Shown here in pieces: positions 9,531 through 27,380 of a stretch of DNA of 38,054 nt (its first letter is position 1; each line of letters opens with the position of its first letter). The DNA is from Candidatus Omnitrophota bacterium (lineage in GTDB: Bacteria; Omnitrophota; Gorgyraeia; Zapsychrales; Fredricksoniimonadaceae): the NCBI GenBank assembly GCA_015234065.1, contig JADFWS010000003.1, positions 1-38,054 on the forward strand, read 5' to 3'. Below the pieces are notes generated by a model that saw only the letters and a program-made list of their open reading frames with translations, was not told the origin of the DNA and searched no databases. A program made the position numbers and the translations under genes.

Positions 9531-11018
9531 TTATCTGACCGCCTGGCCAAATGCCACGCGTGCTGTGTTCGCCTGCTGACCATTATCCATCATCTGATTA
9601 TTCTGAGCCGCCATCGGTGCGTTCATAACCTGATGACAATTCGTACACACACCCCTGTAGACATGCGGCATATTGGCATTGCTTGGAATTGGCGGAGCCA
9701 CAACAGCCGCGACCTGCTGGGCCGCGACCGGAAACGCATTCGCCTGCGTATTAACAGGCATAGCTACCGGAATACCGCCCTGACTGATCATCTGTTTACA
9801 ATTCGGGCATCTCGGATACCCATCATTCGGATCCAACCGGGCATAAAATCTCCAGTTGCACGTCGGACAAACAAACGCTTTCACCGGTGCCTGGCCTTGA
9901 TCAAAATTCGGCTGAACCGGCATCATCTGATTCATTTGCGGCTGCTGGAACTGCACCATGTTCGTCACCGGCTGTTCGATCACCGGGGCCGGCACATTGT
10001 TATTATTGGCCATTTCAAGAGCCATTTCTGCATCACAATTCGGGCATTTCGGAAATTTGTTCGCCTGCCGAACCGCTTTCATACGCCAATTGCAAACCGG
10101 GCAAATAAACCCCTGGGTCTGCTGTTGCTGCGCCGGCTGCACCTGCTGTGGCTGTACCTGCTGCGGTCCAAAACCAAACGCCACTTGCTGCCCTATGCCA
10201 TTCTGATTTCCCGGCAATGGGCACAACGGGCCGCCGTTCCAAGCCACGGGCATATTACCCTGATTAGCCGCTTGCTGCATCATCATACCATTGCCCTGCA
10301 TGCCCCCCTGTTGCATCATGGCCGGTTGCATCATCACACCCTGCTGCATCATGGCCGGGCGCATCATCATGCCGCCGCCTTGTCCCATCGGCATCGGGCA
10401 GTTCGGGCCCATGCCATTACCAAAAGCCACGGGAGCAGGCATCGCCTGACCCATATTCTGGTCTGGCATCTGTCCGGGCATGCCCGGCTGTGGCAGCGTA
10501 TTACTTGCTTGCGGTGTCGCCTGAATTCTGGCCTTGCGATACAACGTCACAACTTTCCTGGCCTGGCCCGTATAACCGCCAAATGCCCTAATACCAAACT
10601 GCATTAAAATGTTATAACTGTCCGGGTCAATGTTGCCAACAATGACCGCTTCTTCACCCTTACCCGCGATCAAATACACCAATTGCGGATTCGGCTGCGT
10701 GCCAAGATACGGATTCTTGATAGACTCAAGCATTTTCTTCGACAACGGATCAACAACCAGGAAATATTTAGCTTCGGGTAACGTAGCCGCCACATTCGCG
10801 TTCAAATTGGACCCGGTCGCGGCAATCACGATCTTCCCGCACGCCGGATTCCCGACATTCTGCGTCTGGCCTTCCGGTGAAAACAGCGCAAAGATCCCGA
10901 CCGCGAGCACCAGCAAAATCGCGCCAAAAATAAAATACGTGTTCAGGTCTGTTTCTTCGAGCCGCGATGAGAGATCGTCGATCGAAACATTCATTTTTTC
11001 TTTCGGATGCTTTACCAT
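9531..11018 (-). CDS. Membrane-anchored mosaic: NifB/NifX domain, Met/Gln-rich region, two CxxC ribbons, one magnetochrome
   Basis: KIVIAATGSNLNANVA...AKYFLVVD...AVIVGNID (NifX-like); CPVCNWR...CPNC and CPTCNWR...CPNC; PPIPSNANMPHVYRGVCTNCH. Confidence 0.8.
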   Translation of the reverse strand: MVKHPKEKMNVSIDDLSSRLEETDLNTYFIFGAILLVLAVGIFALFSPEGQTQNVGNPACGKIVIAATGSNLNANVAATLPEAKYFLVVDPLSKKMLESIKNPYLGTQPNPQLVYLIAGKGEEAVIVGNIDPDSYNILMQFGIRAFGGYTGQARKVVTLYRKARIQATPQASNTLPQPGMPGQMPDQNMGQAMPAPVAFGNGMGPNCPMPMGQGGGMMMRPAMMQQGVMMQPAMMQQGGMQGNGMMMQQAANQGNMPVAWNGGPLCPLPGNQNGIGQQVAFGFGPQQVQPQQVQPAQQQQTQGFICPVCNWRMKAVRQANKFPKCPNCDAEMALEMANNNNVPAPVIEQPVTNMVQFQQPQMNQMMPVQPNFDQGQAPVKAFVCPTCNWRFYARLDPNDGYPRCPNCKQMISQGGIPVAMPVNTQANAFPVAAQQVAAVVAPPIPSNANMPHVYRGVCTNCHQVMNAPMAAQNNQMMDNGQQANTARVAFGQAVR

Positions 11019-11037
11019 ATCTTCCCCTTGTTTAAGA

Positions 11038-11631
11038 TCACTGCATGACCTGGCCGTAACCGAACGGTTTACCCAACAGCGGTGATCCGAGCTGCCAGCT
11101 TCCTTTATAAGGCCCCATGAGCGGCCCGTACTGATAATCGAACGGGATCGTCACATAAGAATTCTTGCCATTCCGGTACACATCCAACAAAATGCCATCT
11201 CTGTACTGAACGCCATTGGCCGCGTTCAAAAAACTTTTACTATCCGCAACAGCCTGACGGCTGATGGACACGATCACATCTGCGGTCTTAATGCCATACT
11301 TGAACGCCAGCTCTTTGCCTTCATCGATCACAAACATCCCTTTGATCTTTCCCGGGAGTTTGAATTCTTTACGGACCACGGCGTTAACCGGAGCCACTTC
11401 CATGCCGAGCCACATCAGGCTGTCCGCTTTTTCCAGCGCTACCGCCGGATTCACTTTCGGCTCGCGCACTTCTCCAAAAAACCCGAACGATGACAAAAGC
11501 TGCAACAAGACGATGACGGCAAGCAACACCGCGCCGAAGAAAATAACCGGCTTCTGTGCCGCGAATTTCTTAACCGCCTCTAAACGCTTTTCAAGATCGC
11601 TCTGATGTTGAGTGTGTTTTGTATGTGTCAT
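11038..11631 (-). CDS. Membrane-anchored PDZ protein (possible detached MamE C-terminal module)
   Basis: TM, then WLGMEVAPV...GIKTADVIVSIS PDZ. Overlaps the mamE stop by 4 nt. Confidence 0.75.
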   Translation of the reverse strand: MTHTKHTQHQSDLEKRLEAVKKFAAQKPVIFFGAVLLAVIVLLQLLSSFGFFGEVREPKVNPAVALEKADSLMWLGMEVAPVNAVVRKEFKLPGKIKGMFVIDEGKELAFKYGIKTADVIVSISRQAVADSKSFLNAANGVQYRDGILLDVYRNGKNSYVTIPFDYQYGPLMGPYKGSWQLGSPLLGKPFGYGQVMQ

Positions 11632-13010
11632 TGGACTTTAACCAACAGCTCATCTGTTTTCCCATTACGGATAATACGGACATTCACATTATCGCCCGGC
11701 CTGAAATGCGTGACAACTTTCTGCACTTCATCTTTACTTGACACCAGAACACCGGCGATCGACGTGATCACGTCCCCACGCTGTATCCCGGCAAAGCTCG
11801 CCGGTGATTCATCCACAACACGATTAACCAGGACTCCCTGCCCCTCGCCAATACCAAACTGGCGCGCCACCACATGGCTTACAGGCATCACTTCAAGCCC
11901 GAAATGGATCGGCACTGGAGCGCTCATGGCCGTAACCGGCAATTTTCCGGTCACCATACCCTTTTGATCTACAGGCACGGTAAAATTCCGGCCCAGATTG
12001 GCTGCCAGGAAATCCTTGCAATCATTGATCGGGATCGTAAATCCTGTGCCGCTGAAAACACCTGTCGGCGCATAAATAGCTGTATTGACACCCACCACCT
12101 CACCATCCAAATTCACAAGAGGCCCGCCGGAAGAACCACGATTAATGGGTGTATCTGTCTGAAAGAGATTCTGGTAACGCACCCCTTCGATCATCAGAGA
12201 CTTGCGAATACCACTGATAATACCGCTGGTGACGGTCTGTTCAATACCAAACGGACTGCCGACCGCGATCACATAATCGCCGATCTGGGTAAAGCTGGAA
12301 TCTCCGAGCTTTGCCTCTGGAAACGGGCCGTCCGCCCTGAGCTTCAACAGCGACAGGTCAAGATTCGGTTCCTGCGCCACAATATCCGCCTTAAGGTCCC
12401 GTGAAGGATTGCCGAACACGGTCACCACAATATCTGTCGCTTCCAGCGTAACATGCGAATTCGTCAGCACATAGCCGCGGTCATCCACAATAATACCAGC
12501 GCCAACATTCTCAAAACCCTTGTTCTCTACAAATTTATCGATCGCCCCGGTAAACGGAGGAACGAATTTAAAACCCTGGGCATCCGTTGTCTGCCGAACA
12601 GGCGTACGAACAATGTGCCTGGCATGAATATCACACACCGAAGGAATGATCGTATTCACGGAATCTTTTAAAGAATTCTGAAATTTGCTGTCCGTATTGG
12701 CCACCAGCTGGAACCCACCACCAGGCGTCGCCTTGGTGATCGCTGCCAACGAATAATTTTTTGCCGAACCCGGTTGCTGAGCCGGAAACGCAGCCGCCCT
12801 AACCTCGCGAGGAAACTTGGGTTCGTTCATGACCTGTGGCGGTGGCGGTGCCGACATCTGAGCTTTTAACTCTTCGGCCTCAACCCCCATCACGATCTCT
12901 TTACGCCTCATGATGACCCAGAACACCAGCATGATCGTGACAAAAACAATGCCAGCGATCCATGGCCCGAGCGGTTGACCGCAAAATTTATTTTTTTCTT
13001 CTTCCGGCAT
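11628..13010 (-). CDS. mamE: MamE HtrA-type serine protease with one PDZ and no magnetochrome
   Basis: Catalytic triad motifs LTNSHV, DLSLLK and INRGSSGGPL; N-terminal TM; C-terminal PDZ; mam context. Confidence 0.85.
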   Translation of the reverse strand: MPEEEKNKFCGQPLGPWIAGIVFVTIMLVFWVIMRRKEIVMGVEAEELKAQMSAPPPPQVMNEPKFPREVRAAAFPAQQPGSAKNYSLAAITKATPGGGFQLVANTDSKFQNSLKDSVNTIIPSVCDIHARHIVRTPVRQTTDAQGFKFVPPFTGAIDKFVENKGFENVGAGIIVDDRGYVLTNSHVTLEATDIVVTVFGNPSRDLKADIVAQEPNLDLSLLKLRADGPFPEAKLGDSSFTQIGDYVIAVGSPFGIEQTVTSGIISGIRKSLMIEGVRYQNLFQTDTPINRGSSGGPLVNLDGEVVGVNTAIYAPTGVFSGTGFTIPINDCKDFLAANLGRNFTVPVDQKGMVTGKLPVTAMSAPVPIHFGLEVMPVSHVVARQFGIGEGQGVLVNRVVDESPASFAGIQRGDVITSIAGVLVSSKDEVQKVVTHFRPGDNVNVRIIRNGKTDELLVKVQ

Positions 13011-13027
13011 CTTTGCTCCCTAACGTG

Positions 13028-13249
13028 TCAGAATGCGAACTTATCACCCGTTGTTGCGCCGCCTGTTGCGGCCTGCGGAAACGCCACCTGTGCCGCTGTT
13101 GTCTTGGGGACAGGCGTTTTATGGAGCCTCTTGTGATGCGTAGTTCCCTTGAATTCAAAGAATATCCCTGCCGCGATCAAAATACAGACCGCTGCAATGA
13201 TCAGAAATCCGAACCAGGGGCTGACACATGTTTCTTTATTGCCGATCAT
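13028..13249 (-). CDS. Small single-TM protein with a QVAF motif
   Basis: Hydrophobic segment, then HHKRLHK and AAQVAFPQ. Between mamI and mamE with an AGGA RBS. Confidence 0.6.
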   Translation of the reverse strand: MIGNKETCVSPWFGFLIIAAVCILIAAGIFFEFKGTTHHKRLHKTPVPKTTAAQVAFPQAATGGATTGDKFAF

Positions 13250-13262
13250 AAAATCCTATCGC

Positions 13263-13481: not shown

Positions 13482-13853
13482 CTAAACCCCACCGCGTAAG
13501 AACCGCGGGAGGCGATTCTTGATCGAAGCGATCTTTTGACCTAAAACATAAGCGCCTTTTTCAAAAGCAACCGGCTCATCAATTTTATCGGAAATAGCCG
13601 CCCCTGAAGCCGCTTCATGCGCCTTTGGAACGTGCTGGGATACCGATGAATTGCTCTTTTCAACTAATGCAAGAATAACTTTTTTGGGGATCCGCTGATG
13701 CCCACCAATGGTCTCAAAGGCCCGAAGCTTACCTTGCTTGATCCAATTAAGGACCGTAAAACGCGTAACATGGCAAAGCTCTGCGGCTTGAGTGGTGGTC
13801 AGGTAGTCTTCGCTGATCGTGGAAGTGAAATTGTCTTTTAAAGAATGTTCCAT
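13482..13853 (-). CDS. Excisionase/MerR-type HTH DNA-binding protein heading the mam operon
   Basis: YLTTTQAAELCHVTRFTVLNWIKQGKL...GGHQRI. Start set at MEHS and uncertain. Confidence 0.75.
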   Translation of the reverse strand: MEHSLKDNFTSTISEDYLTTTQAAELCHVTRFTVLNWIKQGKLRAFETIGGHQRIPKKVILALVEKSNSSVSQHVPKAHEAASGAAISDKIDEPVAFEKGAYVLGQKIASIKNRLPRFLRGGV

Positions 13854-13965
13854 GACGAATGTAAGCGTATATTTTTCAAGGAGATTAAACGTTCTAAATA
13901 AGTGCCAAATAATATCAATCAACCTAAATCTAGTCAAGAAATATTTCTATACGGATCTATTCTTT

Positions 13966-15024
13966 TCAGCTTTCGACGGGAAAAAATTGTTGAAATCGTT
14001 GAGCATTGAACGCTGCAGCAAAATCGGGACGTTTTAAAGATGCACTTTTATAAACAACAAGAGCATCCTTCTTCTGTTCCACAATAAAAACTTCAACATT
14101 TTTTAACAACCGCGCTGCATGAAGGCCCTGCCGGCCTCCTAAAATACACATGACCGTTGACAGAACATCCGCTTCTTCTGCCGTTCGTGCAATCACGGTC
14201 GCACTGATAGCCCCTGTCTCAGGATAACCTGTCATAGGATCAATAATATGCGAATATTTAACCCCATTGATCATTGAAAACTTTTCATAACTGCCAGATG
14301 TTGATATGCCCTGGTCTTTGATGAGCGCGGCCGCCAGTACTTTAGTCTTATCCAGCGGATCCTGAATGCCGATCATCCAGGGTTTTTGGCCATGATCCAA
14401 ACCACGGCAAAAAAGCTCCCCTCCCATATCCAGCAAAAAGTGCTTTATCTCATTGGCATCTAGCATCTTAGCTAATTCATCGCAGGCAAACCCAGAAACA
14501 ATGCCACCCAAATCTATTCCCATGCCTTGTTTCTTGAAAAACACGCGATCCGGCCCTTCCAAGCGAATATTTTGATACCCAACCATCGCTTGAGCGCCTT
14601 TAACAGCGTTTGAATCAGGGATACAACCCTGCTGACTTGCATTTTTCCACAATTTGATCAGCGGAAGACAGGTAATATCAAACGTGCCGCGGGTCATTTT
14701 AGCCAAACGCAACGCATTTTTCACCACGCGATAAACATCCGAGCTTACTTTTACCCCATGAAACCCATCCTGATTTAATTTGGCCAAGTCTCCGGAAGAC
14801 GAAAAAACATTCATGTGCTGATGCCATTGCTCTATCTTGGCCCAACACGACTGTGTAACAGCAGAAATATCAATGGCGGGGTCATGATAAAGACGTATTT
14901 CAACCATTGTACCGAAATACGGCCTGATTTCCTGATACTCCTTAAGATTTACAGGCAATTTTTTCTCGGAAGAAAAACTCATGCGGGTTTGAAGGCTGGA
15001 AAGGATTTTGGTTATCATGCGCAA
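13966..15024 (-). CDS. apbE: FAD:protein FMN transferase ApbE
   Basis: FGTMVEI, GTFDIT, IDLGGI, ISTSGSYEK, HIIDP, AD-x-LST motifs. Confidence 0.9.
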   Translation of the reverse strand: MRMITKILSSLQTRMSFSSEKKLPVNLKEYQEIRPYFGTMVEIRLYHDPAIDISAVTQSCWAKIEQWHQHMNVFSSSGDLAKLNQDGFHGVKVSSDVYRVVKNALRLAKMTRGTFDITCLPLIKLWKNASQQGCIPDSNAVKGAQAMVGYQNIRLEGPDRVFFKKQGMGIDLGGIVSGFACDELAKMLDANEIKHFLLDMGGELFCRGLDHGQKPWMIGIQDPLDKTKVLAAALIKDQGISTSGSYEKFSMINGVKYSHIIDPMTGYPETGAISATVIARTAEEADVLSTVMCILGGRQGLHAARLLKNVEVFIVEQKKDALVVYKSASLKRPDFAAAFNAQRFQQFFPVES

Positions 15025-15035
15025 CCGGAAACAGA

Positions 15036-15818
15036 TTAAACAAACCGGAGATACTTGCGGAAAAGGCCGGTCATAAAGATCGGCATTAAAAAGACCCCGA
15101 AAAACTCCTCGACTACCGTAATATACCCATTGATCCCCACAGGAACAATGTCTTTATAGCTGATATGGATGAGTGTCAGCGTGCTGTAATAGGTTGTTTC
15201 CAATAAACTGGGCTTTACAGTAACCCCGGCATTGATCATCTGGCCATGAGAGTACAGGTAGGAAAACGTCAAGATAAGAAATAACGCGAATAGAATGGTT
15301 CTCTGGGGCTTTTCGCCGTGTCCCCATATACAAAAGGAGAACGTCATGGTGATCCATGAAAAAACCATGCCCACTTGCTTTTTGAGGCCGTTATTCTGAT
15401 CAAAACCAAACGCGCCGCGCGGACGCAAAAAAGGAAATATATTTAAGGCAAGATGCTTGCGATAACACTCTTTGGAACGATAATAACACTCTGAAAATCC
15501 GGCGTCTTCAAGGTCCCGCTCATGCGATGTAGCCGCATATTTATACAGCATGCTGGCGTATTCAAGATCATACGCCAATTCAGCTTCTTTAGCGGCCTTC
15601 TCATAATTCAATGCCGCATAGTGAAAAAAGGTCTTGTCGCCAGCTTTCAGCGCCCAGCAACTAGCCGCTGATGAGAAACATAGCGCCGCACTTTGATGCT
15701 TGCCTTGACCCTGATGGATCCCGGCCGCTTGAACGAACAATTTTGACGCATCGCCGTAATGCTGTTCATCCAGAAGCCGATGCGCCTCTTTTTCAATCGC
15801 GGAAACATCGTTAGGCAT
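15036..15818 (-). CDS. Helical-repeat protein with a C-terminal K+-channel-like (two TM plus pore) domain and degenerate filter
   Basis: Ala-rich TPR/SNAP-like N-terminus; WGHGEKP, TM, YYSTLTLIHISYKDIVP, TM. Confidence 0.65.
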   Translation of the reverse strand: MPNDVSAIEKEAHRLLDEQHYGDASKLFVQAAGIHQGQGKHQSAALCFSSAASCWALKAGDKTFFHYAALNYEKAAKEAELAYDLEYASMLYKYAATSHERDLEDAGFSECYYRSKECYRKHLALNIFPFLRPRGAFGFDQNNGLKKQVGMVFSWITMTFSFCIWGHGEKPQRTILFALFLILTFSYLYSHGQMINAGVTVKPSLLETTYYSTLTLIHISYKDIVPVGINGYITVVEEFFGVFLMPIFMTGLFRKYLRFV

Positions 15819-15858
15819 ACATTAATTTCAGGTAAATGTTGAAAATGTTGAATTCGTT

Positions 15859-16188
15859 TTAACCCTTTAACGCCTGATCCATGGAATCGTGGATAGCGAC
15901 GATCTTATGCACTTTTGTGATCTCAAGAACGCCCCGGATATCCTTATTGACATTGCAAAGAGATAATTTCCCGTTCACCTTCCGAAGCTTTTGGACCAAC
16001 TCGATCAATGATGCGAGCCCGGAGCTATCCATAAAACTCACGGTTTCAAAATCCAATATCACTTTATTGATTTTTTCGCTGACGATCGGCATGAATACAT
16101 CACGCAGCTGTGCTACATTGTCGGCGTTGATCTCGCCATTCAGCATCAAGATCAGAAAATCATTGTTACGTGTGACTTTTATGTCCAT
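15859..16188 (-). CDS. STAS anti-sigma-factor antagonist (RsbV/SpoIIAA-like)
   Basis: VILDFETVSFMDSSGL phosphoserine motif. Confidence 0.85.
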   Translation of the reverse strand: MDIKVTRNNDFLILMLNGEINADNVAQLRDVFMPIVSEKINKVILDFETVSFMDSSGLASLIELVQKLRKVNGKLSLCNVNKDIRGVLEITKVHKIVAIHDSMDQALKG

Positions 16189-16203
16189 CAAGCCCTCCCT
16201 GCC

Positions 16204-17048: not shown

Positions 17049-17951
17049 TTACGCAGGGTCAATAAAGAAATCAATGTCACTTATTAACGGGAGATCCCGA
17101 AAAAGCGCCTGCTTCATGGCATCTGTAAACACGGCAGTATCTGCAATCGTTCCTTTGGAAGAACCGCGCAGGCTAATACCAACCCAGAATTTTTTCCCAA
17201 CCCTTTTAAATTTAATATGTTCCGGCCAGAAATCCGGGCGAATACGCGTAATAACATTACGGATATGCAGAATAAAGCCCGCATCCGGGGCCTGGTCCAG
17301 AATATTCTGTACGCTCATGACCCAATGCTTTAACGCGTCTTTAATGATCGCAACCCCGACGACAAGCGCCGCCAGCCTGTCGCATACGGCAAAATCCGGG
17401 CCAAACTGGGACAAAATAATGCCGCCAATGACCGCACTCGAAGAAATAACATCTGCCCCGGCATGTGCCCCGTTCGCGATCAGCGCCGGACTCTCCAATC
17501 TGCGACCGGCACAAAAATTATAGCGCTGCATCATATATGTCAGAAAAACAGATGTCATGGCCACCGGCAATACCATGATATCTGGCTGAACAAAATCACG
17601 CCGAAGAATAGCCAGAAGGCTGGACAGGGAAATAAATGCCCCCACTCCGATAAGAACGCTAAACGCAATAAGCGTCACCAGAAATTCAAGCCGGGCATAT
17701 CCATACGGGAACCGTGCATCCTGCGGACGGTTAGAGAATGAAAGCGTCACCATGATGGCAATGCTTGTTACCACACACACAATGGACTGAATGCCATCCG
17801 CCAGCATACCGGAACTGTTCGCAAGAACACCCCCCGCAAGCTTGATCACGACGAGAATGGCATTTCCTACAACAGTCCATGCCAGAACCTTTTTAGAACA
17901 CGCCACGCAAGCTTCTGCACTGGGACATGATTGAGCACGTGCTTTTGTCAT
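17049..17951 (-). CDS. Second MamB-like CDF transporter
   Basis: CVAC at the N-terminus, FPYGYARLEF, RYNFCAGRRLESPALIANG, matching mamB GYGFCAGRKLNSPAMIANA. Confidence 0.8.
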   Translation of the reverse strand: MTKARAQSCPSAEACVACSKKVLAWTVVGNAILVVIKLAGGVLANSSGMLADGIQSIVCVVTSIAIMVTLSFSNRPQDARFPYGYARLEFLVTLIAFSVLIGVGAFISLSSLLAILRRDFVQPDIMVLPVAMTSVFLTYMMQRYNFCAGRRLESPALIANGAHAGADVISSSAVIGGIILSQFGPDFAVCDRLAALVVGVAIIKDALKHWVMSVQNILDQAPDAGFILHIRNVITRIRPDFWPEHIKFKRVGKKFWVGISLRGSSKGTIADTAVFTDAMKQALFRDLPLISDIDFFIDPA

Positions 17952-18844
17952 TGTTCGACCATGGGTTTCATCCCCACAAAAATCTCATGGGGTTTTAAAA
18001 ACTTTATTCTTAACGCTTCTTTGATCCTTGCAATAATCTTCTTGGCTTCTGATACCGGCATATCCTTGATCACCGTCAGAATGAGCACAATCTCATACAC
18101 ATGCCCCACTTTGTTCACGCGCAACGCTTCAAGTTCTGCGCCCCGTCCTGCCTGACGCACATGCCGTTCAACAGTACTGATGATCTCCTTATCGCACGAT
18201 GCATCCATAAGCCCGTTAAATGCTCTGTATAGAAACCACACACTGTACGCCACAATAAACACTGCCGCAAAGATCGCGCATGCATAATCAAGGATATACG
18301 CCCCCATCCTTGCCACCACCACCACGACCGCGGTCACGACTGAGAGGATAAAATTTGTTTCAAGGATGAACATGATGTCATGCGCATCTGTCTCACGAAC
18401 AGCAGCAACCTTATTACCAACGATCCCCATAAAAACAAGACTGACGACTGCCGTGCCAAGCGCGATCCATGCCCCCAGAAGTTCCGGCGGATACAGCGTA
18501 TGGAAAAAAACCATGTGACCGGTTGAAAAGATCATCTCCCCTGTAGCCAGCGCAATGATTGCCGATACGCCAAAGAGAACCATGTATTCAAGCTTTCCCT
18601 GGGTAAAAAGCATTTCCCGGCGCCCTGGCCGCACCGACGGATGCGCAACCGCGATCCGCATCAATGTCGCCACTGCGATCAAAATACCGAACAGGGCAAA
18701 AATACCGGCGACGAGCAGGCTTTTCGATGCACTCATAACGCCAAAAACAGTTTTAACAATAAAATCCAACATAAAGAAATAAAGAAGCGCGTACGCAAAA
18801 CGCTCTTTGTTTTCTTTAGCAATATCCAACTTGAATTTCTTCAT
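17948..18844 (-). CDS. Divergent CDF (MamM/MamB-like) lacking canonical metal ligands
   Basis: GKLEY, FNGLMDAS and LRVNKVG CDF landmarks; overlaps the next CDF by 4 nt. Start set at MKKFK. Confidence 0.7.
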   Translation of the reverse strand: MKKFKLDIAKENKERFAYALLYFFMLDFIVKTVFGVMSASKSLLVAGIFALFGILIAVATLMRIAVAHPSVRPGRREMLFTQGKLEYMVLFGVSAIIALATGEMIFSTGHMVFFHTLYPPELLGAWIALGTAVVSLVFMGIVGNKVAAVRETDAHDIMFILETNFILSVVTAVVVVVARMGAYILDYACAIFAAVFIVAYSVWFLYRAFNGLMDASCDKEIISTVERHVRQAGRGAELEALRVNKVGHVYEIVLILTVIKDMPVSEAKKIIARIKEALRIKFLKPHEIFVGMKPMVEQ

Positions 18845-18846
18845 TC

Positions 18847-19671
18847 TTACTTTGCCCCTGTTGTAAGCCCCTGGATCAAATGGCAATTAGAACAGACACC
18901 CCGATAGTTATGCGGCATCTGCGCCGTGATCGGAATAGCGATATCAGGATTAACAACATGACAGCGCTCACATACACCCCGATACTCATGCGGCATGACC
19001 GCATCACGAAATATCATCGGCGCGCCATTGGCTTGCCCTGCCATCGGCTGCGTAAAAGCCACGTTTTGAATGCCCGCTCCCTGCGCCTGACTGTTCATGG
19101 TAATATTCGCACCGCAACGAGGGCAGCGTGAAAATCCGTTTGCACCGGCATTTTGATCAATATAGGAATGATTACAGCGCGGACAGCGAATCCCACTATA
19201 AACCGGCCGCTGAAACGCGACCTGTTGTACGCCAACCGCACAACCGGGCCTGAACGCTACTTGTTGAGCCCCATTAATACCTTGAGGAAAGCATTGGGCA
19301 ACGCTTGGACATGTCGCGCAATTCGGATTTGTTAAAGCCACCTGCTGGGCTGATCCTGCGGCCCCTGGGAAACAATTCGTTACCGTCGGGCACGTAGCGC
19401 AGCCTGGTGGCACATAAGCTGCCTGCAAAGCTCCGCCCAGAACAACAGTTTCCTGCCCGGGCTGAAATGCCACCTGCTGGGCCCCCTGAACCATAACGCC
19501 ATGAACTTGATCCGGCATCGGAATCGGCTTCTTTGCACTACTAAAAACTGCAACGCAAAAGAACGTGGCCAGCCCAAGAATGATAGTTCCAATGATCCAT
19601 AAACTCTTGGAGCTCAAGTTCACACACGACCCGTATTCCCACGCCTCATTTTTCTTTTTTTCACTGCTCAT
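18847..19671 (-). CDS. Two-magnetochrome (MamT-like) protein with Cys-rich repeats
   Basis: TM; two CATCP-x-V-x2-CFP repeats; CPRC...CPRC; MPHEYRGVCERCH and MPHNYRGVCSNCH. Confidence 0.8.
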   Translation of the reverse strand: MSSEKKKNEAWEYGSCVNLSSKSLWIIGTIILGLATFFCVAVFSSAKKPIPMPDQVHGVMVQGAQQVAFQPGQETVVLGGALQAAYVPPGCATCPTVTNCFPGAAGSAQQVALTNPNCATCPSVAQCFPQGINGAQQVAFRPGCAVGVQQVAFQRPVYSGIRCPRCNHSYIDQNAGANGFSRCPRCGANITMNSQAQGAGIQNVAFTQPMAGQANGAPMIFRDAVMPHEYRGVCERCHVVNPDIAIPITAQMPHNYRGVCSNCHLIQGLTTGAK

Positions 19672-19683
19672 AATAATGCCCTT

Positions 19684-20112
19684 TCATGGCCTTGTTCCTA
19701 CAACAATATAAACCGAAACCGGCTGCCCCTGTCGGTCGACTGTGAGCGCAACCTTCTGATTTTCCTGCGCCGCCTGAATCAAGCCCTGCAACTCATCCGA
19801 ACTTGTAATACTGACCCCGTTCCAACGTCGGATCACATCTCCGACCTGAATACCCGCCACCTGCGCCGGAGAGTCAATGAACGTTCGCGCCACAAGAACA
19901 CCGCTCGAAGACGGAACGCTGAATTGCCGCTGAACATCCGAGGTCAGATCAATCGTCTCGGCCCCGATCCACACCTTTGTTTTCATAGCGTTAAAGTACA
20001 TGGGGATCAATTTCAAATAAATGATAAAGACCGCGGACATAAACAACAGGACCAGAACAACAATCCCCCGCCCTTTATATGCTGAACTCGCGCGTTGCAC
20101 AGGTTTAAACAT
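19684..20112 (-). CDS. Membrane-anchored PDZ protein
   Basis: TM, then VWIGAE...SGVLV...DSPAQVAGIQVGDVIRRWNG. Confidence 0.8.
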   Translation of the reverse strand: MFKPVQRASSAYKGRGIVVLVLLFMSAVFIIYLKLIPMYFNAMKTKVWIGAETIDLTSDVQRQFSVPSSSGVLVARTFIDSPAQVAGIQVGDVIRRWNGVSITSSDELQGLIQAAQENQKVALTVDRQGQPVSVYIVVGTRP

Positions 20113-20968
20113 CTTTAGGCCTATCTTTAAAAGCTTCCTTTATCGGATCTCCCGGCCCTATCTGAACACGAACATTCTCACACTTCAAACACTTGAAACA
20201 TCGGACACAGGTTGCTGCGCCGGTGTTATCACTGATATTGATATCCACCGGGCAAACGTCCCGGCACTTTTGGCAGTCTTTACAACCATGCGTATCCACC
20301 TTCAACTGAAGGATACTGTACTTGTTAAAAAATCCGAATATTGCACCGAGCGGGCAGGCTAATGTACAAAACGGCCTTTTTGCCACCATAAAAAGTCCGA
20401 TGAACGCAAACGCGATCAAAATTTTAATAATAAACAGTAGTCCCAACGTCTGCGTTGATACCGCAGGCTCTCCGTACACCGGAATAATCGGATTCCATGT
20501 CACCCACGGGATCGCGGCCTGAAATGTCCCCATGGGACACACTTTAGAAAACCATGTTTCCTGGGTGATCAGCGGGAATAAAACAACCAAAAAGAACAAT
20601 ATGAAATATCTCAAATTTGACAACTTTTCAGGAATCCGGATCTTAATGCTTTTGACCTTATACAACAGGTCCTGAAGAAGCCCGAACGGACACACCCACC
20701 CGCAAGCAAGGCTGCCCACCAGAATACCGATCGTCGCAAGATACGCTGTCACCATGTACGGAAACTTCCGGATGGTCATAAAATGCTGGACCGTACCGAT
20801 TGGGCATGAAAAGAATGCCGACGGACAACTGTGGCAATTCAAAACCGGCACGCAAATACTTTTAAGGTCGCCCTGATACACCTGCTTTGTCTTAAAGAAT
20901 CCCACATACGCGTTCATCAAAAGCGCCGAACACCACTGAACCGTAAGTCGTATGCCTTGAAGATCCAT
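20105..20968 (-). CDS. NapH/MauN-type membrane 4Fe-4S binding protein
   Basis: NCHSCP..CPIG, CGWVCPFG, CPMG, RPFCTLACPLG, CKDCQKCRDVCP, CVRCFKC. Confidence 0.85.
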   Translation of the reverse strand: MDLQGIRLTVQWCSALLMNAYVGFFKTKQVYQGDLKSICVPVLNCHSCPSAFFSCPIGTVQHFMTIRKFPYMVTAYLATIGILVGSLACGWVCPFGLLQDLLYKVKSIKIRIPEKLSNLRYFILFFLVVLFPLITQETWFSKVCPMGTFQAAIPWVTWNPIIPVYGEPAVSTQTLGLLFIIKILIAFAFIGLFMVAKRPFCTLACPLGAIFGFFNKYSILQLKVDTHGCKDCQKCRDVCPVDINISDNTGAATCVRCFKCLKCENVRVQIGPGDPIKEAFKDRPKDV

Positions 20969-20971
20969 TCC

Positions 20972-21106
20972 CTACTCCAGTCCTATACACGCCATGCACA
21001 TGGTGGCGCCATTATTCTGTATTTCCAACGGCTCATTATTCGTATCGCCGATCAGAAAGAAAACAAACGTCAAAAAGAAGACACCTGTAACTGCTATTTT
21101 TTTCAT
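20972..21106 (-). CDS. CD1871A-type CxxC peptide (44 aa, absent from the ORF track)
   Basis: Manual translation MKKIAVTGVFFLTFVFFLIGDTNNEPLEIQNNGATMCMACIGLE ends in CxxCIG, typical of peptides encoded beside this 4Fe-4S family. Confidence 0.7.
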   Translation of the reverse strand: MKKIAVTGVFFLTFVFFLIGDTNNEPLEIQNNGATMCMACIGLE

Positions 21107-21125
21107 TATGTACTCCGGACACTCT

Positions 21126-21482
21126 TTACTGCGTTTCTATCCAGGTCATTGGCCTCCCACAATGCGGGCACAACGGAAATCCACCTTTGCCGCACGCAGG
21201 ACAAACAAAAATTCCTCTGTATCCGTTCCAAAACATCGCGACTTTACATGTCGGGCATAACGGGATCCCCTTGGTGCCGCATATAGGACACACGCTATAG
21301 ACATTATGCGCAATAACTTTCATGACCACATTGCCTGCAATAAGTGAACGCACCTGAAGGGTTTTATATTTCCCGACAGAATACGCACCGTACCCGGCCA
21401 CGAACACCATGAAGATCACGCCCATAATCAACAGCCTGATCCGGTCCTGTTCGTGAATGTTCGTTTGGTCGTTAATACTCAC
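21126..21482 (-). CDS. Membrane-anchored protein with four CPxC motifs (double zinc/rubredoxin-like ribbon)
   Basis: CPIC, CPTC, CPAC and CPHC in two internally repeated units after a TM. Confidence 0.75.
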   Translation of the reverse strand: MSINDQTNIHEQDRIRLLIMGVIFMVFVAGYGAYSVGKYKTLQVRSLIAGNVVMKVIAHNVYSVCPICGTKGIPLCPTCKVAMFWNGYRGIFVCPACGKGGFPLCPHCGRPMTWIETQ

Positions 21483-22183
21483 AGCACCTTTACCTTTGGT
21501 TTCACGCCGCCCGCCGGAGCCGGCGCTGTCACCGCCGTTACTTCATGCATGGCCCCGCCGCATTTGGGGCATTTGTCCGGGATCACCTTGCCGGCGCTCT
21601 TTTCCGAAATGCGATACTGGCAATCGAAACAAATATAATATTTGCCCTGAACGACCCGTCCGAGGTTGGCCTGCGTATCAAAAGAATTGCAGGCCACGGC
21701 CTTTTTGCTTCCCGTAATACCAAAATGCGCCGGAACATTCTCCGCGGTCAGTTTGGTCAGCGCATCCGGATAATCCTGAAGCGCCTGCCAGGCCGTCCCG
21801 TGAATGTCCGTATACACATCAATACGTGCCTGATCAAAAATACGGAAAGGCTCAAAGCCGACATTGTTCCCCAAGACCACATCCACGCCAAGATCAACCA
21901 ACATTTGCGCCGAGCGCAATCCCGCGGCATGCTGAGCATCCATATATTTATTTGGAACAGCTTTCCATGTTCTTCTGGCACGGTCGCAAATGATATAGTA
22001 CGGCGCGCGCCCAAAAAGATAGGAAACAGGGCTCGTAATATCTTGCCCAGTCGCGGCAATAGCCACCAGAACAGCCTTTCTTCCGCTTAAAACAAGCGGA
22101 TTATCCATTTCATACCATGCACGGCCGGCTACAAGGCCAAGTGCGCACAAAAGAACCAGTAGAAAGGCTGATCTCTTCTTCAT
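21479..22183 (-). CDS. Signal/TM-bearing NifB/NifX-family protein with a C-terminal CxxC ribbon
   Basis: VAIAATGQDITSPVSYLFGRAPYYII...GVDVVLGNNVG; CFDC...CPKC. Confidence 0.85.
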   Translation of the reverse strand: MKKRSAFLLVLLCALGLVAGRAWYEMDNPLVLSGRKAVLVAIAATGQDITSPVSYLFGRAPYYIICDRARRTWKAVPNKYMDAQHAAGLRSAQMLVDLGVDVVLGNNVGFEPFRIFDQARIDVYTDIHGTAWQALQDYPDALTKLTAENVPAHFGITGSKKAVACNSFDTQANLGRVVQGKYYICFDCQYRISEKSAGKVIPDKCPKCGGAMHEVTAVTAPAPAGGVKPKVKVL

Positions 22184-23308: not shown

Positions 23309-23734
23309 CTAAAATTGTTTTAGCCAACCTTCGATCTTTTGCCTGATCTCCTCACGAACAGCCCTGGTCTTGGCAAGCTTCTCTTCAAAAGCCCCCTCGA
23401 ACTTCGACGGGTCTGTGAAGCCCCAATGAAGCCTCTTGGCCACGCCCGGAAATACCGGACAGCGCTCAGCACTTGTTTCATCGCACACCGTGACTACATA
23501 GTTATACAACTTGCGCTGTTTCAAAAGATCAAAAACCGCCTGCGTTTTCTTCCCGGTAATATCAACCCCGATCTCCTTCAAGGCCTCAATAACAACTGGA
23601 TTCAACTTGCCCGGCTCGATCCCGGCACTTTCTACCTCAAACCTATCCCCGCCCAGCTTGCGCAAAATCTCTTCTGCCATCTGGCTTCTTGCTGAATTGT
23701 GAATACACACAAACAACACCTTTACCTTGCCCAT
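23309..23734 (-). CDS. arsC: Arsenate reductase (LMW-PTP fold)
   Basis: VLFVCIHNSARSQMAE, VTVCD, CPVFPG, HWGFTDP. Confidence 0.9.
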   Translation of the reverse strand: MGKVKVLFVCIHNSARSQMAEEILRKLGGDRFEVESAGIEPGKLNPVVIEALKEIGVDITGKKTQAVFDLLKQRKLYNYVVTVCDETSAERCPVFPGVAKRLHWGFTDPSKFEGAFEEKLAKTRAVREEIRQKIEGWLKQF

Positions 23735-23743
23735 CACAACCCC

Positions 23744-24712
23744 CTAGCTAGTTAGAACAATTTGAAGAAAATTAAACGCATATCCAATAGCGATAATTCC
23801 CGCCGTTACGACCCCGAAATAAATAAGGATCAAATGGAGATTCATTGCCCGTCTCAGCATGATAGCCTCGGGCAAACTTAACCCGGTGACCGCCATCATA
23901 AAAGCCAAGGCAGTCCCCAGCGGTATCCCTTTTTGAAATAAAACCAATGCAACGGGCACGATTGCGGCACAACTACCATACATCGGAACACCTAAAAGAG
24001 TCGCTATTGGCACCGAAAAGATCCCCGTGCCGGAAATCAGCGCATGGATCTGTTCTTGAGGGAGATAATTGTGTATGAAAGACCCTAAAGCAACGCCCAC
24101 CAAAATCCATAACCAGATCTTCTGAACGATCGAGGACGCCTCATTCAGACCAAAAACAATTCTATCTTTGAAGGACGAGATCTGTGGTTCATTGGAGGAA
24201 AGCTCTTCGTTTCCACTGGCAACCATATCAACAACAAGATGCCGCTCCAGCTTCATCCTCCCAATAACAAGCCCTGACACAATGGCTAACAGCAATCCGC
24301 TCAATACATACAGAACAGTTATTTTCCAGCCGAACAGCCCTATCATGATGATAACCAGGTATTCGTTGATCAGAGGAGATGCCACTAGAAAAGTAAGCGC
24401 CGCGCTCAACGATATGCCCGCCTTAAGAAAACTTAAAAACATCGGGATCGATGAACAGGAACAGAACGGCGTGATAGCACCGAACAAAGCCGCGTAGACA
24501 TTTCCCATCAGCCCGTTATTAGCCATCCACTTCTTGACCGACCGCTGCGGAATAAATGTCCTTAATACTCCGATAACCAGGATCATCACATAGAGCAAGA
24601 ATAATATCTTTATTGAATCGTAAATAAAGAAATCCAATGCTGCTGCCAGCGTCGATGATCTTGGCAGATCCAAGACTTGATAAACAAACCAATCAGAGAA
24701 ATTTAACAGCAC
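23744..24712 (-). CDS. DUF318 / ArsP-type permease
   Basis: [34 protein letters not shown] start with GGAGG RBS. Confidence 0.85.
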
Positions 24713-25761
24713 TTGCCCTCCTTCTTAATGTCGACCAACCAAACGCTGCTTTTCAAATACAACGCCACATTGACCAACCCGATCATGACCGGCACCTCGA
24801 CCAAAGGCCCGATGACCGCGGCGAAAGCCACGCCAGAATTGATACCAAAGACAGCAATCGCAACGGCAATAGCCAACTCAAAATTGTTGCTTGCCGCCGT
24901 GAACGAAAGCGTCACGGTCTTGCCATGATCAGCCCCCGCCTTCCCGCTCATGAAGAAGGAGAGAAAAAACATGACCACAAAATAAATCAGGAGCGGAATC
25001 GCGATCCGAAGAACATCCCACGGGATCTTTACGATGTACTCCCCCTTAAGCGAGAACATCACAAAGATCGTGAACAGAAGGGCGATCAGCGTCATGGGGC
25101 TGATGCGAGGAATGAACACCTTCTCATACCATTCCTTGCCCCTCAGCCGAAGCAGGGCAAACCTGGAGATCATTCCAGCCAAGAACGGAATACCCAGATA
25201 AATGAATACACTTTTGGCGATCTGCATGATCGTGACATTAACAATCACGCCTTTAAGACCAAACCAGCCAGGAAGGATCGTAATAAAGACCCACGCGTAC
25301 ACCGAGAAGAACAGCACCTGAAAAATGGCGTTAAACGCCACCAACCCGGCGCAATACTCGGTATCCCCATCAGCCAGGTCGTTCCAGACAATGACCATGG
25401 CAATGCACCGCGCCAAGCCGATCATGATAAGACCGACCATGTATTCCGGATAGCCTCGCAAAAAGACGATCGCCAGGGCAAACATCAATATTGGGCCAAT
25501 AATCCAGTTCTGAACCAGCGACAGCGCCAGGATCTTGTAATCCTTAAACACATCCCCCAATTCCTCATACTTCACCTTCGCCAAAGGTGGATACATCATG
25601 AGGATCAATCCAATAGCGATCGGTACATTGGTTGTCCCTGATTGAAACTGATTCCAGAATCCCATAACTCCCGGAATAAAGTACCCGACGCCAACGCCAA
25701 GCGCCATCGCCAGGAATATCCATGCCGTCAAATACTGATCCAGGAATGCCAGCTTCTTCAT
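24703..25761 (-). CDS. acr3: Arsenite efflux transporter Acr3
   Basis: [39 protein letters not shown]. Confidence 0.95.
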
Positions 25762-26066
25762 CCCTTCTCCTCGGGCGTCTTAATACTGCAACATCCACCT
25801 TCAATCTTGATAGCCTTGATGTTAACCAGCCCGTCAGCCACTTTCTTATGGGCAGAAGATAATATCCTGGTAAATGTCGGGCGCGACACCTTCATCAGTT
25901 TCCCCGCCTGCGCGTGGGTCAAATCTTCAAGATCCGCCAACCGAATGGCCTCGAACTCATCAATGGTCACGGCCACGCCCTCCAGCACGCCCGGTTTCTT
26001 ACACTTGGGACGAAAGCATCTCTCCCCCGGCAGGCACTTGATCCATCTGGTCTTTTTTGGTCTCAT
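25758..26066 (-). CDS. DUF134 domain HTH protein
   Basis: [41 protein letters not shown]...IKIEGG. Confidence 0.9.
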
Positions 26067-26077
26067 CTTAAACCTCG

Positions 26078-26099
26078 ATTATGAACTATGGTTCATAAT
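26078..26099. promoter_or_regulatory. Palindromic operator upstream of DUF134
   Basis: ATTATGAAC-tatg-GTTCATAAT, a perfect 9-bp inverted repeat 11 nt upstream of the ATG. Confidence 0.6.
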
Positions 26100-26225
26100 A
26101 ACAGCGGTCGCAATTTTGTCAACTGCTTTCGTAAACCCTAAATCGTACATGCTAATTGTTTGGTAATTCGAAAGATGCAATTCTCTCTGACTGCTACAAG
26201 ATTCAGAATTGTATTGGGATGCTGC

Positions 26226-27380
26226 TTACCACGGAGTGATCCATCGGCCCTGATTACGGCCAAAGCCGGTATACACATGCGCAATGAGCGCCATTCTAAG
26301 ATGCCCGTCCTGAAAAGCGGCGAACGTCTGCTCGACCGTGGCGGGACGATCAATATAGTAAACTCGAACGCCCACAGACCTGAGCGCCGCATACATCTCG
26401 GGATCCATCTGTGCCGCCAGGACTGTGCCGACATTATTCTGACGCACCAGCGCGGTCAGCATCTGGATCGTGTTCCCGTTAAAGAACTGGCTGTTATTCA
26501 TAAACACAACCGTCTTGTTCTGTGTCATATCCGCGACAAAATAATACGGGGCCCGGCCGAACATATTCTCAACCGGGCTCTGGGCGAACTGCCCCTGCGC
26601 CGGAATCAGGACGACCTTTCTCTTATTCAGCGTATCGTGGGCATCATGGGCGAACAAAAGGACGATCAACACGGTCAACACATACAAAGCCGTCGCAACC
26701 CGCCGCTTGATCGCCACTTCATTCGGGATCTGCTCCGCAAAAGCTTCCTTAAACAGTACAAACGCGCCCCGGAATTGGAAACAGGCGATCAAAACAGCAC
26801 CCAGAGGATCGCAATATACCAATCCCGCTTCGGCGAGCGTCAGCCCAACCAGCGCCACGATCGTCGAATAGAAATTCGCCTTGTTCTGCACCATGCAGAT
26901 ATAAATACTGCTGTTGTCCGGCTTTTGCTTGAGCGCACTGACAGAAACCCGATACAAATGTGTCGTGGCTAAAAAAGAAACGAGCGCAACAAAAAGCGAC
27001 AGGATCCCAGGATGCCCCGGCAAATGCACAAAAAGGATCGCCACATTATCCGAAAGGATCCAAACGCCCGACAGGAACATCACGATCCCGATCAGAATCC
27101 CCTGCCAGAACGGCGAAAGCCTGAGGCGGCGGACACCCTGATAATTGATCCCGAACGCAACACAATCCGCGAACGAATTCACAGCATCAGCAACGAGGAT
27201 CTTACTTCCGGTCAAAAGCCCGACAAAACCTTTGACGATCGTCGCGATAATATAATAAATGAGCGAGCCGAACACAACGCGCGAATGGCAATTGCGGCAC
27301 TTGGGATTGATCTTGCCCTTGAACAGAAGTTGATTACAGGTACAGGCTTTATCTTTAGGATGGTGTTCCGCGAGCGGCAT
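26226..27380 (-). CDS. MamB-like CDF membrane domain fused via an extra TM to a NifB/NifX domain
   Basis: CRNC, KGFVGLLTGSKILVADAVNSFAD, YCDPLGA; a further TM; then SPVENMFGRAPYYFVAD. Confidence 0.8.
   Translation of the reverse strand: MPLAEHHPKDKACTCNQLLFKGKINPKCRNCHSRVVFGSLIYYIIATIVKGFVGLLTGSKILVADAVNSFADCVAFGINYQGVRRLRLSPFWQGILIGIVMFLSGVWILSDNVAILFVHLPGHPGILSLFVALVSFLATTHLYRVSVSALKQKPDNSSIYICMVQNKANFYSTIVALVGLTLAEAGLVYCDPLGAVLIACFQFRGAFVLFKEAFAEQIPNEVAIKRRVATALYVLTVLIVLLFAHDAHDTLNKRKVVLIPAQGQFAQSPVENMFGRAPYYFVADMTQNKTVVFMNNSQFFNGNTIQMLTALVRQNNVGTVLAAQMDPEMYAALRSVGVRVYYIDRPATVEQTFAAFQDGHLRMALIAHVYTGFGRNQGRWITPW

Follow-up and report, generated by a model that had tools for sequence, protein, structure and literature searches.

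The stretch of DNA analysed here, 38,054 nt of contig JADFWS010000003.1 (hereafter the window), contains the magnetosome gene cluster of a magnetotactic member of the Omnitrophota. The cluster was identified by Pfam and NCBIfam scans of the window proteins, and the source names of homologues put the organism in Omnitrophota. In the list of open reading frames (ORFs), nearly all long ORFs of the 38-kb window are on the minus strand. Three of them encode proteins with a NifX-like domain, which are called P0001, P0002, and P0003 in the following. The original prediction had placed such domains in exactly these three ORFs, each directly after a transmembrane or signal segment. All three ORFs are present, and in all three proteins a hydrophobic segment in the Kyte-Doolittle plot precedes the domain. 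The features of the three genes are as follows.

9531..11018, minus strand: P0001, 495 aa, with a transmembrane anchor, a NifX-like domain, Q/M/G/P-rich linkers, two Cys4 ribbons, and one magnetochrome
10878..10934, minus strand: P0001 transmembrane anchor, residues 29-47 (Kyte-Doolittle 2.74)
10503..10838, minus strand: P0001 NifX-like domain, about residues 61-172 (Pfam and family profile)
10035..10103, minus strand: P0001 Cys4 ribbon 1 (C306, C309, C325, C328), with the motif CPxCNWR...FPxCPNC kept across the family
9798..9869, minus strand: P0001 Cys4 ribbon 2 (C384, C387, C404, C407; family alignment)
9618..9695, minus strand: P0001 magnetochrome, residues 442-467, with CTNCH at 458 (Pfam MCR)
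21479..22183, minus strand: P0002, 234 aa, with a signal/anchor segment, a NifX-like domain, a linker, a Cys4 ribbon, and a conserved tail
22115..22171, minus strand: P0002 hydrophobic segment behind the N-terminal MKKR, residues 5-23 (Kyte-Doolittle; modelled as a helix, residues 3-27)
21758..22069, minus strand: P0002 NifX-like domain, about residues 39-142 (Pfam, profile, and Foldseek)
21644..21736, minus strand: P0002 conserved linker, residues 150-180, VPxHFGITGSK...C...F...AN...VQG (27-sequence alignment)
21560..21631, minus strand: P0002 Cys4 ribbon (C185, C188, C205, C208), CFDC...CPKC, with all four Cys invariant
21479-21505, minus strand: P0002 conserved tail, KPKV(K/R)V(L/F)
26226..27380, minus strand: P0003, 384 aa, at the cluster edge, with a divergent CDF-like part of six helices, followed by a seventh helix and the NifX-like domain
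26736..27278, minus strand: P0003 CDF-like transmembrane domain, residues 35-215 (Pfam Cation_efflux, 61.8 bits)
26643..26699, minus strand: P0003 seventh hydrophobic helix, residues 228-246 (Kyte-Doolittle 2.06; modelled as a helix, residues 221-254)
26283..26618, minus strand: P0003 NifX-like domain, about residues 255-366 (Pfam, Foldseek, and hhalign)

The gathering cut-off of the Pfam family Nitro_FeMo-Co (PF02579) is 26.3 bits, and the domains of P0002 (55.6 bits, residues 51-138) and P0003 (40.2 bits, residues 267-357) are above it. The P0001 domain is just below the cut-off in the protein scan (23.9 bits, E 5e-5, residues 76-161) and over it in a six-frame family search (27.5 bits). Hidden Markov models thus recover the predicted domain. 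Family profiles and structural models enabled a closer assignment. A profile of 28 P0001 family members matches MTH1175 (E 2e-9) and TM1290 (8e-8), and the P0002 family profile matches MTH1175 (4e-17), TM1290 (2e-16), and the orange protein ORP (5e-9). In Foldseek searches with the AlphaFold models of P0002 (pLDDT 75) and P0003 (pLDDT 74), the best match was in both cases ORP (2wfb), with a target TM-score of 0.85 (root-mean-square deviation of 1.3 for P0002), and the next matches were TM1290 (0.84 for P0003), PH0822, TM1816, and MTH1175. For comparison, the target TM-score of the P0002 model with a true NifX chain (9ian_F) is only 0.52. For P0001, the fold support is an Atlas model match, in which residues 61-175 align with a Nitro_FeMo-Co cluster at TM-scores of 0.60/0.77. 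By profile and fold comparison, the three domains are best assigned to the NifX superfamily, and within it to the MTH1175/TM1290/orange-protein subgroup, not to NifB or NifX proper. The original label “NifB/NifX” holds at the level of the superfamily. The P0001 family alignment contains an invariant NPACG before strand 1 of the domain as well as an invariant AGKGEEA, and its invariant polar residues are C60, K120, E122, and E123. In the P0002 family, C66, D67, and E111 are invariant, and H85 is nearly so.

To compare the three domains with one another, a quick tree of 94 rows and 120 columns was calculated, which is biased, because its generic proteins were picked for similarity to P0001. Each of the three families forms a well-supported group (SH-aLRT values of 100, 100, and 83-95). 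The groups are not sisters of one another, and the tree does not resolve the backbone. P0002 nests among small generic proteins, and P0001 is found near PDZ- and magnetochrome-linked domains. In hhalign comparisons, the P0003 family is clearly related to the P0002 family (probability 98.8%, E 6e-17), with an alignment that includes a GFG motif behind the domain, whereas the link between P0001 and P0002 is weak (93.4%, E 3e-7). Many generic proteins have profile scores nearer to the P0001 domain than those of the P0002 or P0003 domains. A single recruitment of all three domains was considered; more than one recruitment is likely. The C-terminus of the P0003 family (TGFGR...RW..PW) is similar to the tail region of P0002.

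The fusion partners named by the original prediction, i.e. a magnetochrome in P0001, a CxxC ribbon in P0002, and a CDF in P0003, were all recovered, and the two CPxC...CPNC ribbons of P0001 have to be added to them. The P0001 magnetochrome (PF18509) has 32.2 bits in the protein scan (cut-off 30.4 bits) and 37.7 bits in the six-frame search, the family profile matches the MamP structure 4jj0 (E 2e-10), and the protein has 23.5 bits on the NCBIfam MamP model. P0001 contains a single CxxCH, at residue 458, which is a predicted haem site, and the Pfam scan found no PDZ domain in the protein. The region of about residues 175-440 (9700-10500) comprises low-complexity Q/M/G/P-rich linkers, the length of which is highly variable among the homologues. 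The homologues have 2-4 ribbons and 1-2 magnetochromes, and the window copy has the minimal set. The P0002 ribbon has a weak match to an NCBIfam rubrerythrin-like model (23 bits, cut-off 32 bits). The linker in front of it is invariant in 27/27 aligned homologues, yet it is modelled as disordered (pLDDT about 44). Docking of the C-terminal tail of P0002 (residues 176-234) with the transmembrane-PDZ protein encoded at 19684-20112 (residues 44-142) yielded a score of 0.23, the mark being 0.32. In the P0003 model, the six CDF helices match YiiP with a target TM-score of 0.59, and the seventh helix is located directly before the NifX-like domain, in place of the cytoplasmic ZT_dimer domain. CDF proteins typically have a transport-site motif, HxxxD/DxxxD, in transmembrane helices 2 and 5 (TM2 and TM5). 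The respective residues of P0003 are N68...D72 in TM2 and Q165...N169 in TM5, and the TM2-TM3 loop is shortened.

A hydrophobic segment before the NifX-like domain is typical of all three families. It is present in 53/53, 53/57, and 6/6 complete members of the P0001, P0002, and P0003 families, respectively, as well as in 12/12 FmpB-like proteins and 18/18 proteins with PDZ and multiple NifX-like domains (see below), in contrast to only one of 42 small generic NifX-like proteins. In P0001, the Kyte-Doolittle plot shows no hydrophobic segment from the NifX-like domain up to the CxxCH. Covalent attachment of c-type haem takes place outside the cytoplasm. As the CxxCH is on the same uninterrupted chain behind the anchor, a periplasmic or lumenal position is expected for the whole C-terminal chain of P0001 with its NifX-like domain and ribbons. 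The start of P0002, in which MKKR precedes a hydrophobic stretch, resembles a signal peptide or an anchor with the N-terminus inside. CDF proteins have a cytoplasmic N-terminus, and the odd number of seven helices would therefore put the P0003 domain outside of the cytoplasm. Taken from sequence and models, all three domains are membrane-tethered and predicted to be outside of the cytoplasm, most likely on the periplasmic or magnetosome-lumen side, in agreement with the lumen-facing orientation originally proposed.

The P0001 and P0002 genes are core, syntenic members of Omnitrophota and Planctomycetota magnetosome clusters, whereas the P0003 gene is rare and located at the cluster edge. The whole 1.75-Mb genome contains only four Nitro_FeMo-Co matches. 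Three of these are inside the 38-kb window, so that their clustering is not due to chance; the remaining match is the NifB C-terminal domain. P0001 orthologues are present in 5/5 other magnetochrome-positive genomes tested, always between a PDZ gene and the 92-aa gene upstream of mamP. For P0002, species genomes were scanned with two peptide patterns, a procedure by which distant relatives could be missed. Twelve loci of the P0002 family were found, ten in Omnitrophota and two in Planctomycetota. The options that P0002 is Mad2, or that it occurs in Desulfobacterota or Nitrospirota clusters, found no support in the two-pattern scan, which yielded only Omnitrophota and Planctomycetota. The P0002 homologues are accompanied by a transmembrane double-ribbon gene (12/12), a Mad6-like gene (11/12), a PDZ gene (10/12), and a magnetochrome gene (10/12), and the missing cases are at contig ends.

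For comparison, 401 sampled Omnitrophota genomes were searched. P0002 matches were found in 165 of them, but full-length relatives (E <= 1e-106) in only four; the next best match has an E value of 1e-18, and these matches are generic frames of about 130 aa. Magnetochrome matches are present in eight of the 401 genomes, seven of them over the cut-off, and all four genomes with a full-length P0002 relative are among these eight. In this survey, full-length P0002 relatives thus occur only in magnetochrome-positive genomes, and the assignment of the P0001 and P0002 genes to the magnetosome region holds by synteny; that of P0003 is much less certain (see below). In two of the five magnetochrome-positive genomes with P0001 orthologues (G241 and G388), a P0002 orthologue was not found; at completeness values of 93% and 91%, its absence is not established. 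The magnetochrome matches in G250 and G375 are weak.

Two gene blocks surround P0001 and P0002, and an ars-type operon is located between P0003 and the P0002 module.

4055..13010, minus strand: core mam block around P0001 (Pfam/NCBIfam), with the same order in five other genomes
11628-13010, minus strand: mamE (trypsin-PDZ), core mam block
11038-11631, minus strand: transmembrane-PDZ gene adjoining mamE, core mam block
8988-9266, minus strand: gene for a small 92-aa Cys protein, core mam block
7780-8979, minus strand: mamP (PDZ and two magnetochromes), NCBIfam MamP 208.6 bits, below the 300-bit cut-off
Core mam block, minus strand: a 90-aa gene and two CDF genes (MamM/B-like, with ZT_dimer)
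4769-5584, minus strand: mamA (TPR), core mam block
4055-4753, minus strand: mamQ (LemA), core mam block
17049..21482, minus strand: second block, the gene set travelling with P0002 (Pfam/NCBIfam)
21126-21482, minus strand: gene for a transmembrane protein with a double Cys4 ribbon, second block
20105-20968, minus strand: gene for a Mad6/NapH-like ferredoxin membrane protein, second block
19684-20112, minus strand: transmembrane-PDZ gene, second block
18847-19671, minus strand: gene for a transmembrane protein with ribbons and two magnetochromes, second block
17948-18886 and 17049-17951, minus strand: two CDF genes, second block
23309..26066, minus strand: ars-type operon with DUF134, ACR3, ArsP-type permease, and ArsC-like genes

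The core mam block also encodes a MamN-like PDZ-CitMHS protein and a TauE protein (Pfam/NCBIfam). In the five other genomes, the conserved order is mamE, PDZ, P0001 type, 92-aa gene, mamP, 90-aa gene, CDF, CDF, mamA, mamQ, PDZ-CitMHS, TauE, PDZ, and helix-turn-helix (HTH) gene, continuing with P0002 type, ribbon, Mad6-like, PDZ, magnetochrome, CDF, and CDF. In the window, both halves of the cluster are rearranged relative to the other genomes, with regulators and ApbE between them. This intervening region (13482-16629, minus strand) encodes an excisionase/BldC-like HTH protein, ApbE (a flavin transferase), an ion-channel-like protein, a STAS anti-anti-sigma protein, and an HATPase_c_2 anti-sigma kinase, and parts of the set recur beside the cluster in other genomes (L007, L016, and L021). 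The window CDFs other than P0003 have HxxxD in TM5 in two cases, and a ZT_dimer match in three of four, two of these above the cut-off. The 92-aa membrane protein has a CNLC near its N-terminus and a CRECH after its hydrophobic segment; it is 52-63% identical in the eight fetched loci that span the position, always between the P0001-type gene and mamP, and it could be assigned to no family. The ars-type operon, the genes of which overlap at their ends, was identified by matches to ACR3 (456 bits, cut-off 282.8 bits) and to the arsC family model (116 bits, below its cut-off), and an ACR3 homologue with 79% identity is also found near mamE in another genome (L021 5788-6828). A promoter and terminator scan of the window did not yield more sites than shuffled sequence. 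Outside of the window, contig C131 of the same genome (1-5323, minus strand) encodes nifK (451.7 bits), nifE (631.3 bits), and nifB (391.6 bits), the last of which is truncated by the end of the contig, as well as a nifN-like gene with a score (311.8 bits) slightly below the cut-off of 326.8 bits. This Omnitrophota genome with a magnetosome cluster thus also carries nitrogenase genes. Another genome contains a mini-module (G219 contig C23, L014, 3280-6233) in which a membrane-anchored NifX-like protein without a ribbon (191-aa ORF) adjoins a second Mad6/NapH-like paralogue and a MamE-like protease, repeating the pairing of NifX-like and NapH-like proteins.

The original prediction held that the NifX-like domain is not part of the canonical Mam set. 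However, the domain has already been reported in magnetosome proteins of Desulfovibrio magneticus RS-1. FmpB of RS-1 is described as having an N-terminal magnetochrome and a C-terminal NifX/NifB domain (Rahn-Lee et al. 2015, PMC4287615), and FmpA and FmpB as having a transmembrane domain and a signal peptide, respectively, and both “denitrogenase Fe-Mo domains” (2025, PMC12748827). Both proteins are enriched on early-stage magnetosomes (PMC12748827), and the crystals of strains with fmpA or fmpB mutant alleles are fewer, smaller, and misshapen (PMC12748827; PMC4287615); the authors predict that these alleles eliminate the Fe-Mo domains (PMC12748827). Among the papers found, only these two were relevant for the NifX-like domain in magnetosome proteins. 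The literature search yielded nothing on the Omnitrophota proteins described here; its scope was the articles themselves, and supplements, i.e. the per-bin annotations of Lin et al. 2020 and the FmpA/FmpB diagrams, may already label the genes. The Omnitrophota architectures are new, i.e. a NifX-like domain in first position, the lack of PDZ, the Cys4 ribbons, a separate NifX-ribbon protein, and the CDF-TM7-NifX fusion.

FmpA and FmpB of RS-1 were compared by their published descriptions and by relatives with the same architecture. FmpB (DMR_41100, also called MamP-like) resembles P0001 in being a secreted or anchored cluster protein with a magnetochrome and a NifX-like domain in one chain, and it is encoded beside mamE-type PDZ genes. 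However, FmpB-like proteins (P0132, P0134, P0139, and P0143) have, in this order, a magnetochrome, a PDZ domain, and two NifX-like domains, in contrast to P0001 with one NifX-like domain first and the magnetochrome last, without PDZ, and with two Cys4 ribbons and long Q/M/G/P-rich linkers. FmpA (DMR_41090, MamE-Cter) and the Desulfamplus proteins with PDZ and multiple NifX-like domains are likewise membrane-anchored cluster proteins. The latter have two PDZ and 2-4 NifX-like domains (1039-1516 aa), whereas the window PDZ protein beside mamE (11038-11631) has no NifX-like domain. To search for further relatives, the P0001 domain profile was compared with 1.84 billion representatives, which yielded 582 proteins with E <= 1e-3, 27 of them with E <= 1e-30. 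After the P0001 family itself came proteins with a magnetochrome, PDZ, and two NifX-like domains (498-548 aa) and the above-mentioned proteins with PDZ and 2-4 NifX-like domains. The FmpB-like proteins are the top matches outside of the family (E 1e-23 to 1e-17; P0132, 9e-23), with a tree backbone support of only 82-83 SH-aLRT on 120 columns. Source names of the relatives include MamP of Ca. Desulfarcum epimagneticum, several Desulfamplus metagenome-assembled genomes (MAGs), and a Bacteriovoracaceae MAG. A scan of 84 further representatives found Nitro_FeMo-Co in 76, PDZ_2 in 29, and MCR in 17, and an Atlas “MamP-like” cluster of 73 members combines all three domains, which we regard as a lead only. 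The NifX-like domain is widespread in Desulfobacterota magnetosome clusters, and the profile matches suggest that the P0001 domain belongs to the same lineage as the FmpB-like and PDZ-multi-NifX domains of these clusters.

The comparison with other known systems underlines the differences in context. MTH1175, TM1290, and ORP (2wfb), the best profile and fold matches for P0002 and P0003 and profile matches for P0001, consist of a single domain of about 120 aa and have no hydrophobic segments, whereas in the window proteins the domain is tethered to the membrane and combined with redox, metal, or transporter modules. The Pfam family and the fold are shared by the carriers of FeMo-co or NifB-co, i.e. 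NifX, NafY, and the C-terminal domain of NifB. However, they are soluble and cytoplasmic, in contrast to the window domains, which follow hydrophobic segments, are predicted to be outside of the cytoplasm, and are encoded among mam genes and apart from the nif cluster (nifB, nifE, nifN, and nifK on contig C131). The C-terminal magnetochrome of P0001 links it to the MamP/MamT magnetochrome proteins by its match to MamP 4jj0, but a separate and more canonical MamP with PDZ and two magnetochromes is encoded at 7780-8979. P0003 shares with MamB/MamM-type CDFs the six-helix Cation_efflux domain, but not the TM2/TM5 site residues or the ZT_dimer domain. CDF-ZT_dimer-NifX fusions (P0067) are similar to P0003 in having a NifX-like domain behind a CDF membrane domain; they differ in that the dimerisation domain is kept, a seventh helix is missing, and the NifX-like domain is cytoplasmic, whereas P0003 has the seventh helix and a degenerate TM5. 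An Atlas cluster of such fusions has 454 members, 72% of them archaeal and mostly from Methanobacteriota (a lead). A NifX-like domain on a metal transporter is thus recurrent outside magnetotactic bacteria, there on the cytoplasmic side.

The best explanation as a whole is that lumen-facing, tethered NifX-like domains handle iron next to redox centres, and we hold it with about even confidence. Iron would enter the lumen through the neighbouring CDF transporters, and the tethered domains would bind iron or small polynuclear iron species (Fe-O or Fe-S) there. The bound iron would be held beside one-electron centres, i.e. the haems of the magnetochromes and perhaps the ribbons as rubredoxin-like Fe(Cys)4 sites. 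These centres could set the redox state of the iron, with electrons fed via the Mad6/NapH-like membrane ferredoxin, so that the Fe(II)/Fe(III) supply might be suitably poised when magnetite crystals nucleate and grow. As an accessory variant, P0003 would have such a domain linked without intermediate to a divergent membrane module of the CDF type. A role in the hand-off of iron or clusters is plausible.

Several observations weigh against this explanation. Metal or cluster binding is so far a predicted role for these domains. No Cys, His, or other ligand residue is conserved across all three families, and a common ligand set can therefore not be named. As the three domains are not mutual closest relatives, one common function is an assumption. 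The topology is based on Kyte-Doolittle windows, helix counts, and general rules. The fmpA and fmpB alleles of RS-1 are a premature stop and a frameshift and not domain-precise deletions, and the phenotype may therefore stem from the loss of more than the domain. P0003 lacks the usual HxxxD site in TM5 and a match to the cytoplasmic ZT_dimer dimerisation domain, so that the label “transporter” is uncertain for this protein. In addition, P0003 lies 160 bp upstream of the DUF134-ACR3-ArsP-ArsC-like operon, no P0003 match with E <= 1e-20 was found in any of the 400 other sampled Omnitrophota genomes, and its link to the magnetosome rests on adjacency in two genomes.

The observations on P0003 are compatible with another view of this gene, i.e. 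that it is not a magnetosome gene, but part of a metal/metalloid homeostasis island that borders the cluster by chance. We consider this somewhat less than evenly probable. Apart from the vicinity of the ars-type operon, a fused orthologue is missing in all five other magnetochrome-positive genomes, only five proteins with the same architecture were found in a large protein search, and at the one other locus the gene follows the last CDF gene of the cluster and precedes Fur, DUF134, methyltransferase, and C_GCAxxG genes. It also has a promoter-like site of its own (27454-27426), which matches 11/12 consensus positions and is a consensus match only, and CDF-ZT_dimer-NifX fusions occur outside of magnetotactic bacteria. 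However, both genomic occurrences border a magnetosome cluster, its NifX-like domain has a clear relationship with the one in the core protein P0002, including the shared GFG behind the domain, and the seventh helix puts it on the side opposite to that in the archaeal fusions. A magnetosome role of P0003 is therefore uncertain.

For all three proteins, a pure scaffold role is a serious rival, because no ligand set is conserved and the RS-1 alleles are not domain-precise. The NifX-like domains would have lost the role of cluster carriers and would act as protein-protein interaction or scaffold modules in the lumen, which bring PDZ, protease, and magnetochrome proteins together instead of handling iron. 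The common fusion of relatives to PDZ interaction domains (29 of the 84 scanned representatives) would fit to this role, as would the invariant but unstructured linker of P0002 and its conserved hydrophobic C-terminal tail. The lack of a common ligand residue also favours it. The orange protein, a member of the same family, holds its cluster non-covalently, so that sequence alone cannot show binding. However, each family has kept the core NifX-like motifs together with the invariant polar residues of its own given above, and the domains have repeatedly been joined to redox or metal modules (magnetochromes, Cys4 ribbons, and the CDF), and on balance we regard the loss of the carrier role as rather unlikely.

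Characterised carriers of the NifX family bind Fe-S-based clusters, and the domains could accordingly mark iron-sulfide (greigite) chemistry with Fe-S clusters as mineral precursors, as the original prediction had suggested. Desulfamplus MAGs indeed encode PDZ-multi-NifX proteins, and the strain of Desulfamplus in culture forms both greigite and magnetite (Lin 2020). However, the same modules occur in bins that the authors class as Fe3O4-type: eight loci have bin names of the type used by Lin et al. 2020, and just one of these, nS315bin20, belongs to the eight Fe3S4-bearing bins listed in that paper. Furthermore, RS-1, which has both FmpA and FmpB, is described as making magnetite (PMC4287615). 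The iron-sulfide suggestion is thus not upheld, and we judge it very improbable. The same applies to a reverse topology, in which cytoplasmic NifX-like domains would receive ordinary Fe-S clusters, e.g. for maturation of the Mad6/NapH-like ferredoxin. Being small and without hydrophobic segments, the generic NifX-like proteins are presumably cytoplasmic, Cys4 ribbons are usually cytoplasmic, and the NifX-like domain of the archaeal CDF fusions follows a cytoplasmic dimerisation domain, all of which would be compatible with this orientation. It is opposed by the CxxCH of P0001, which is on the same side with no hydrophobic segment in between, by the MKKR and hydrophobic segment of P0002, by the seven helices of P0003, and by the signal peptide that the authors ascribe to FmpB of RS-1 (PMC12748827), and it appears highly unlikely.

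The explanation of lumen-facing, tethered domains that handle iron can be extended to a more general idea, which is tentative and which we would rather doubt than accept at present. Deep-branching magnetotactic bacteria (Omnitrophota, Planctomycetota, and Desulfobacterota) would share a set of tethered lumen-facing NifX-like domains that carry preformed polynuclear iron to the crystal. Nucleation would then proceed via protein-bound clusters, poised by adjacent haem and Fe(Cys)4 centres, and not via free ions, and the proteins of the Omnitrophota would represent this set in a minimal and separable form.

How iron is held and redox-poised in the magnetosome before it crystallises has hardly been studied outside the Alphaproteobacteria. 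The NifX-like domain, noted before in FmpA and FmpB of RS-1, is now a conserved membrane-tethered feature of the magnetosome clusters in a second, distant phylum. The Omnitrophota architectures are simpler, with a single domain and Cys4 ribbons, with or without one magnetochrome, and the window proteins are a source of small soluble domains for metal-binding and structural work. The conserved neighbourhood suggests that the Mad6/NapH-like ferredoxin, the ribbon proteins, the magnetochromes, and the CDFs act together with the NifX-like domain. Should an iron cluster be bound by this domain, the carrier step that is missing from the picture of biomineralisation would be identified; if none is bound, its repeated fusion to PDZ and redox modules would still mark a lineage-specific organiser.

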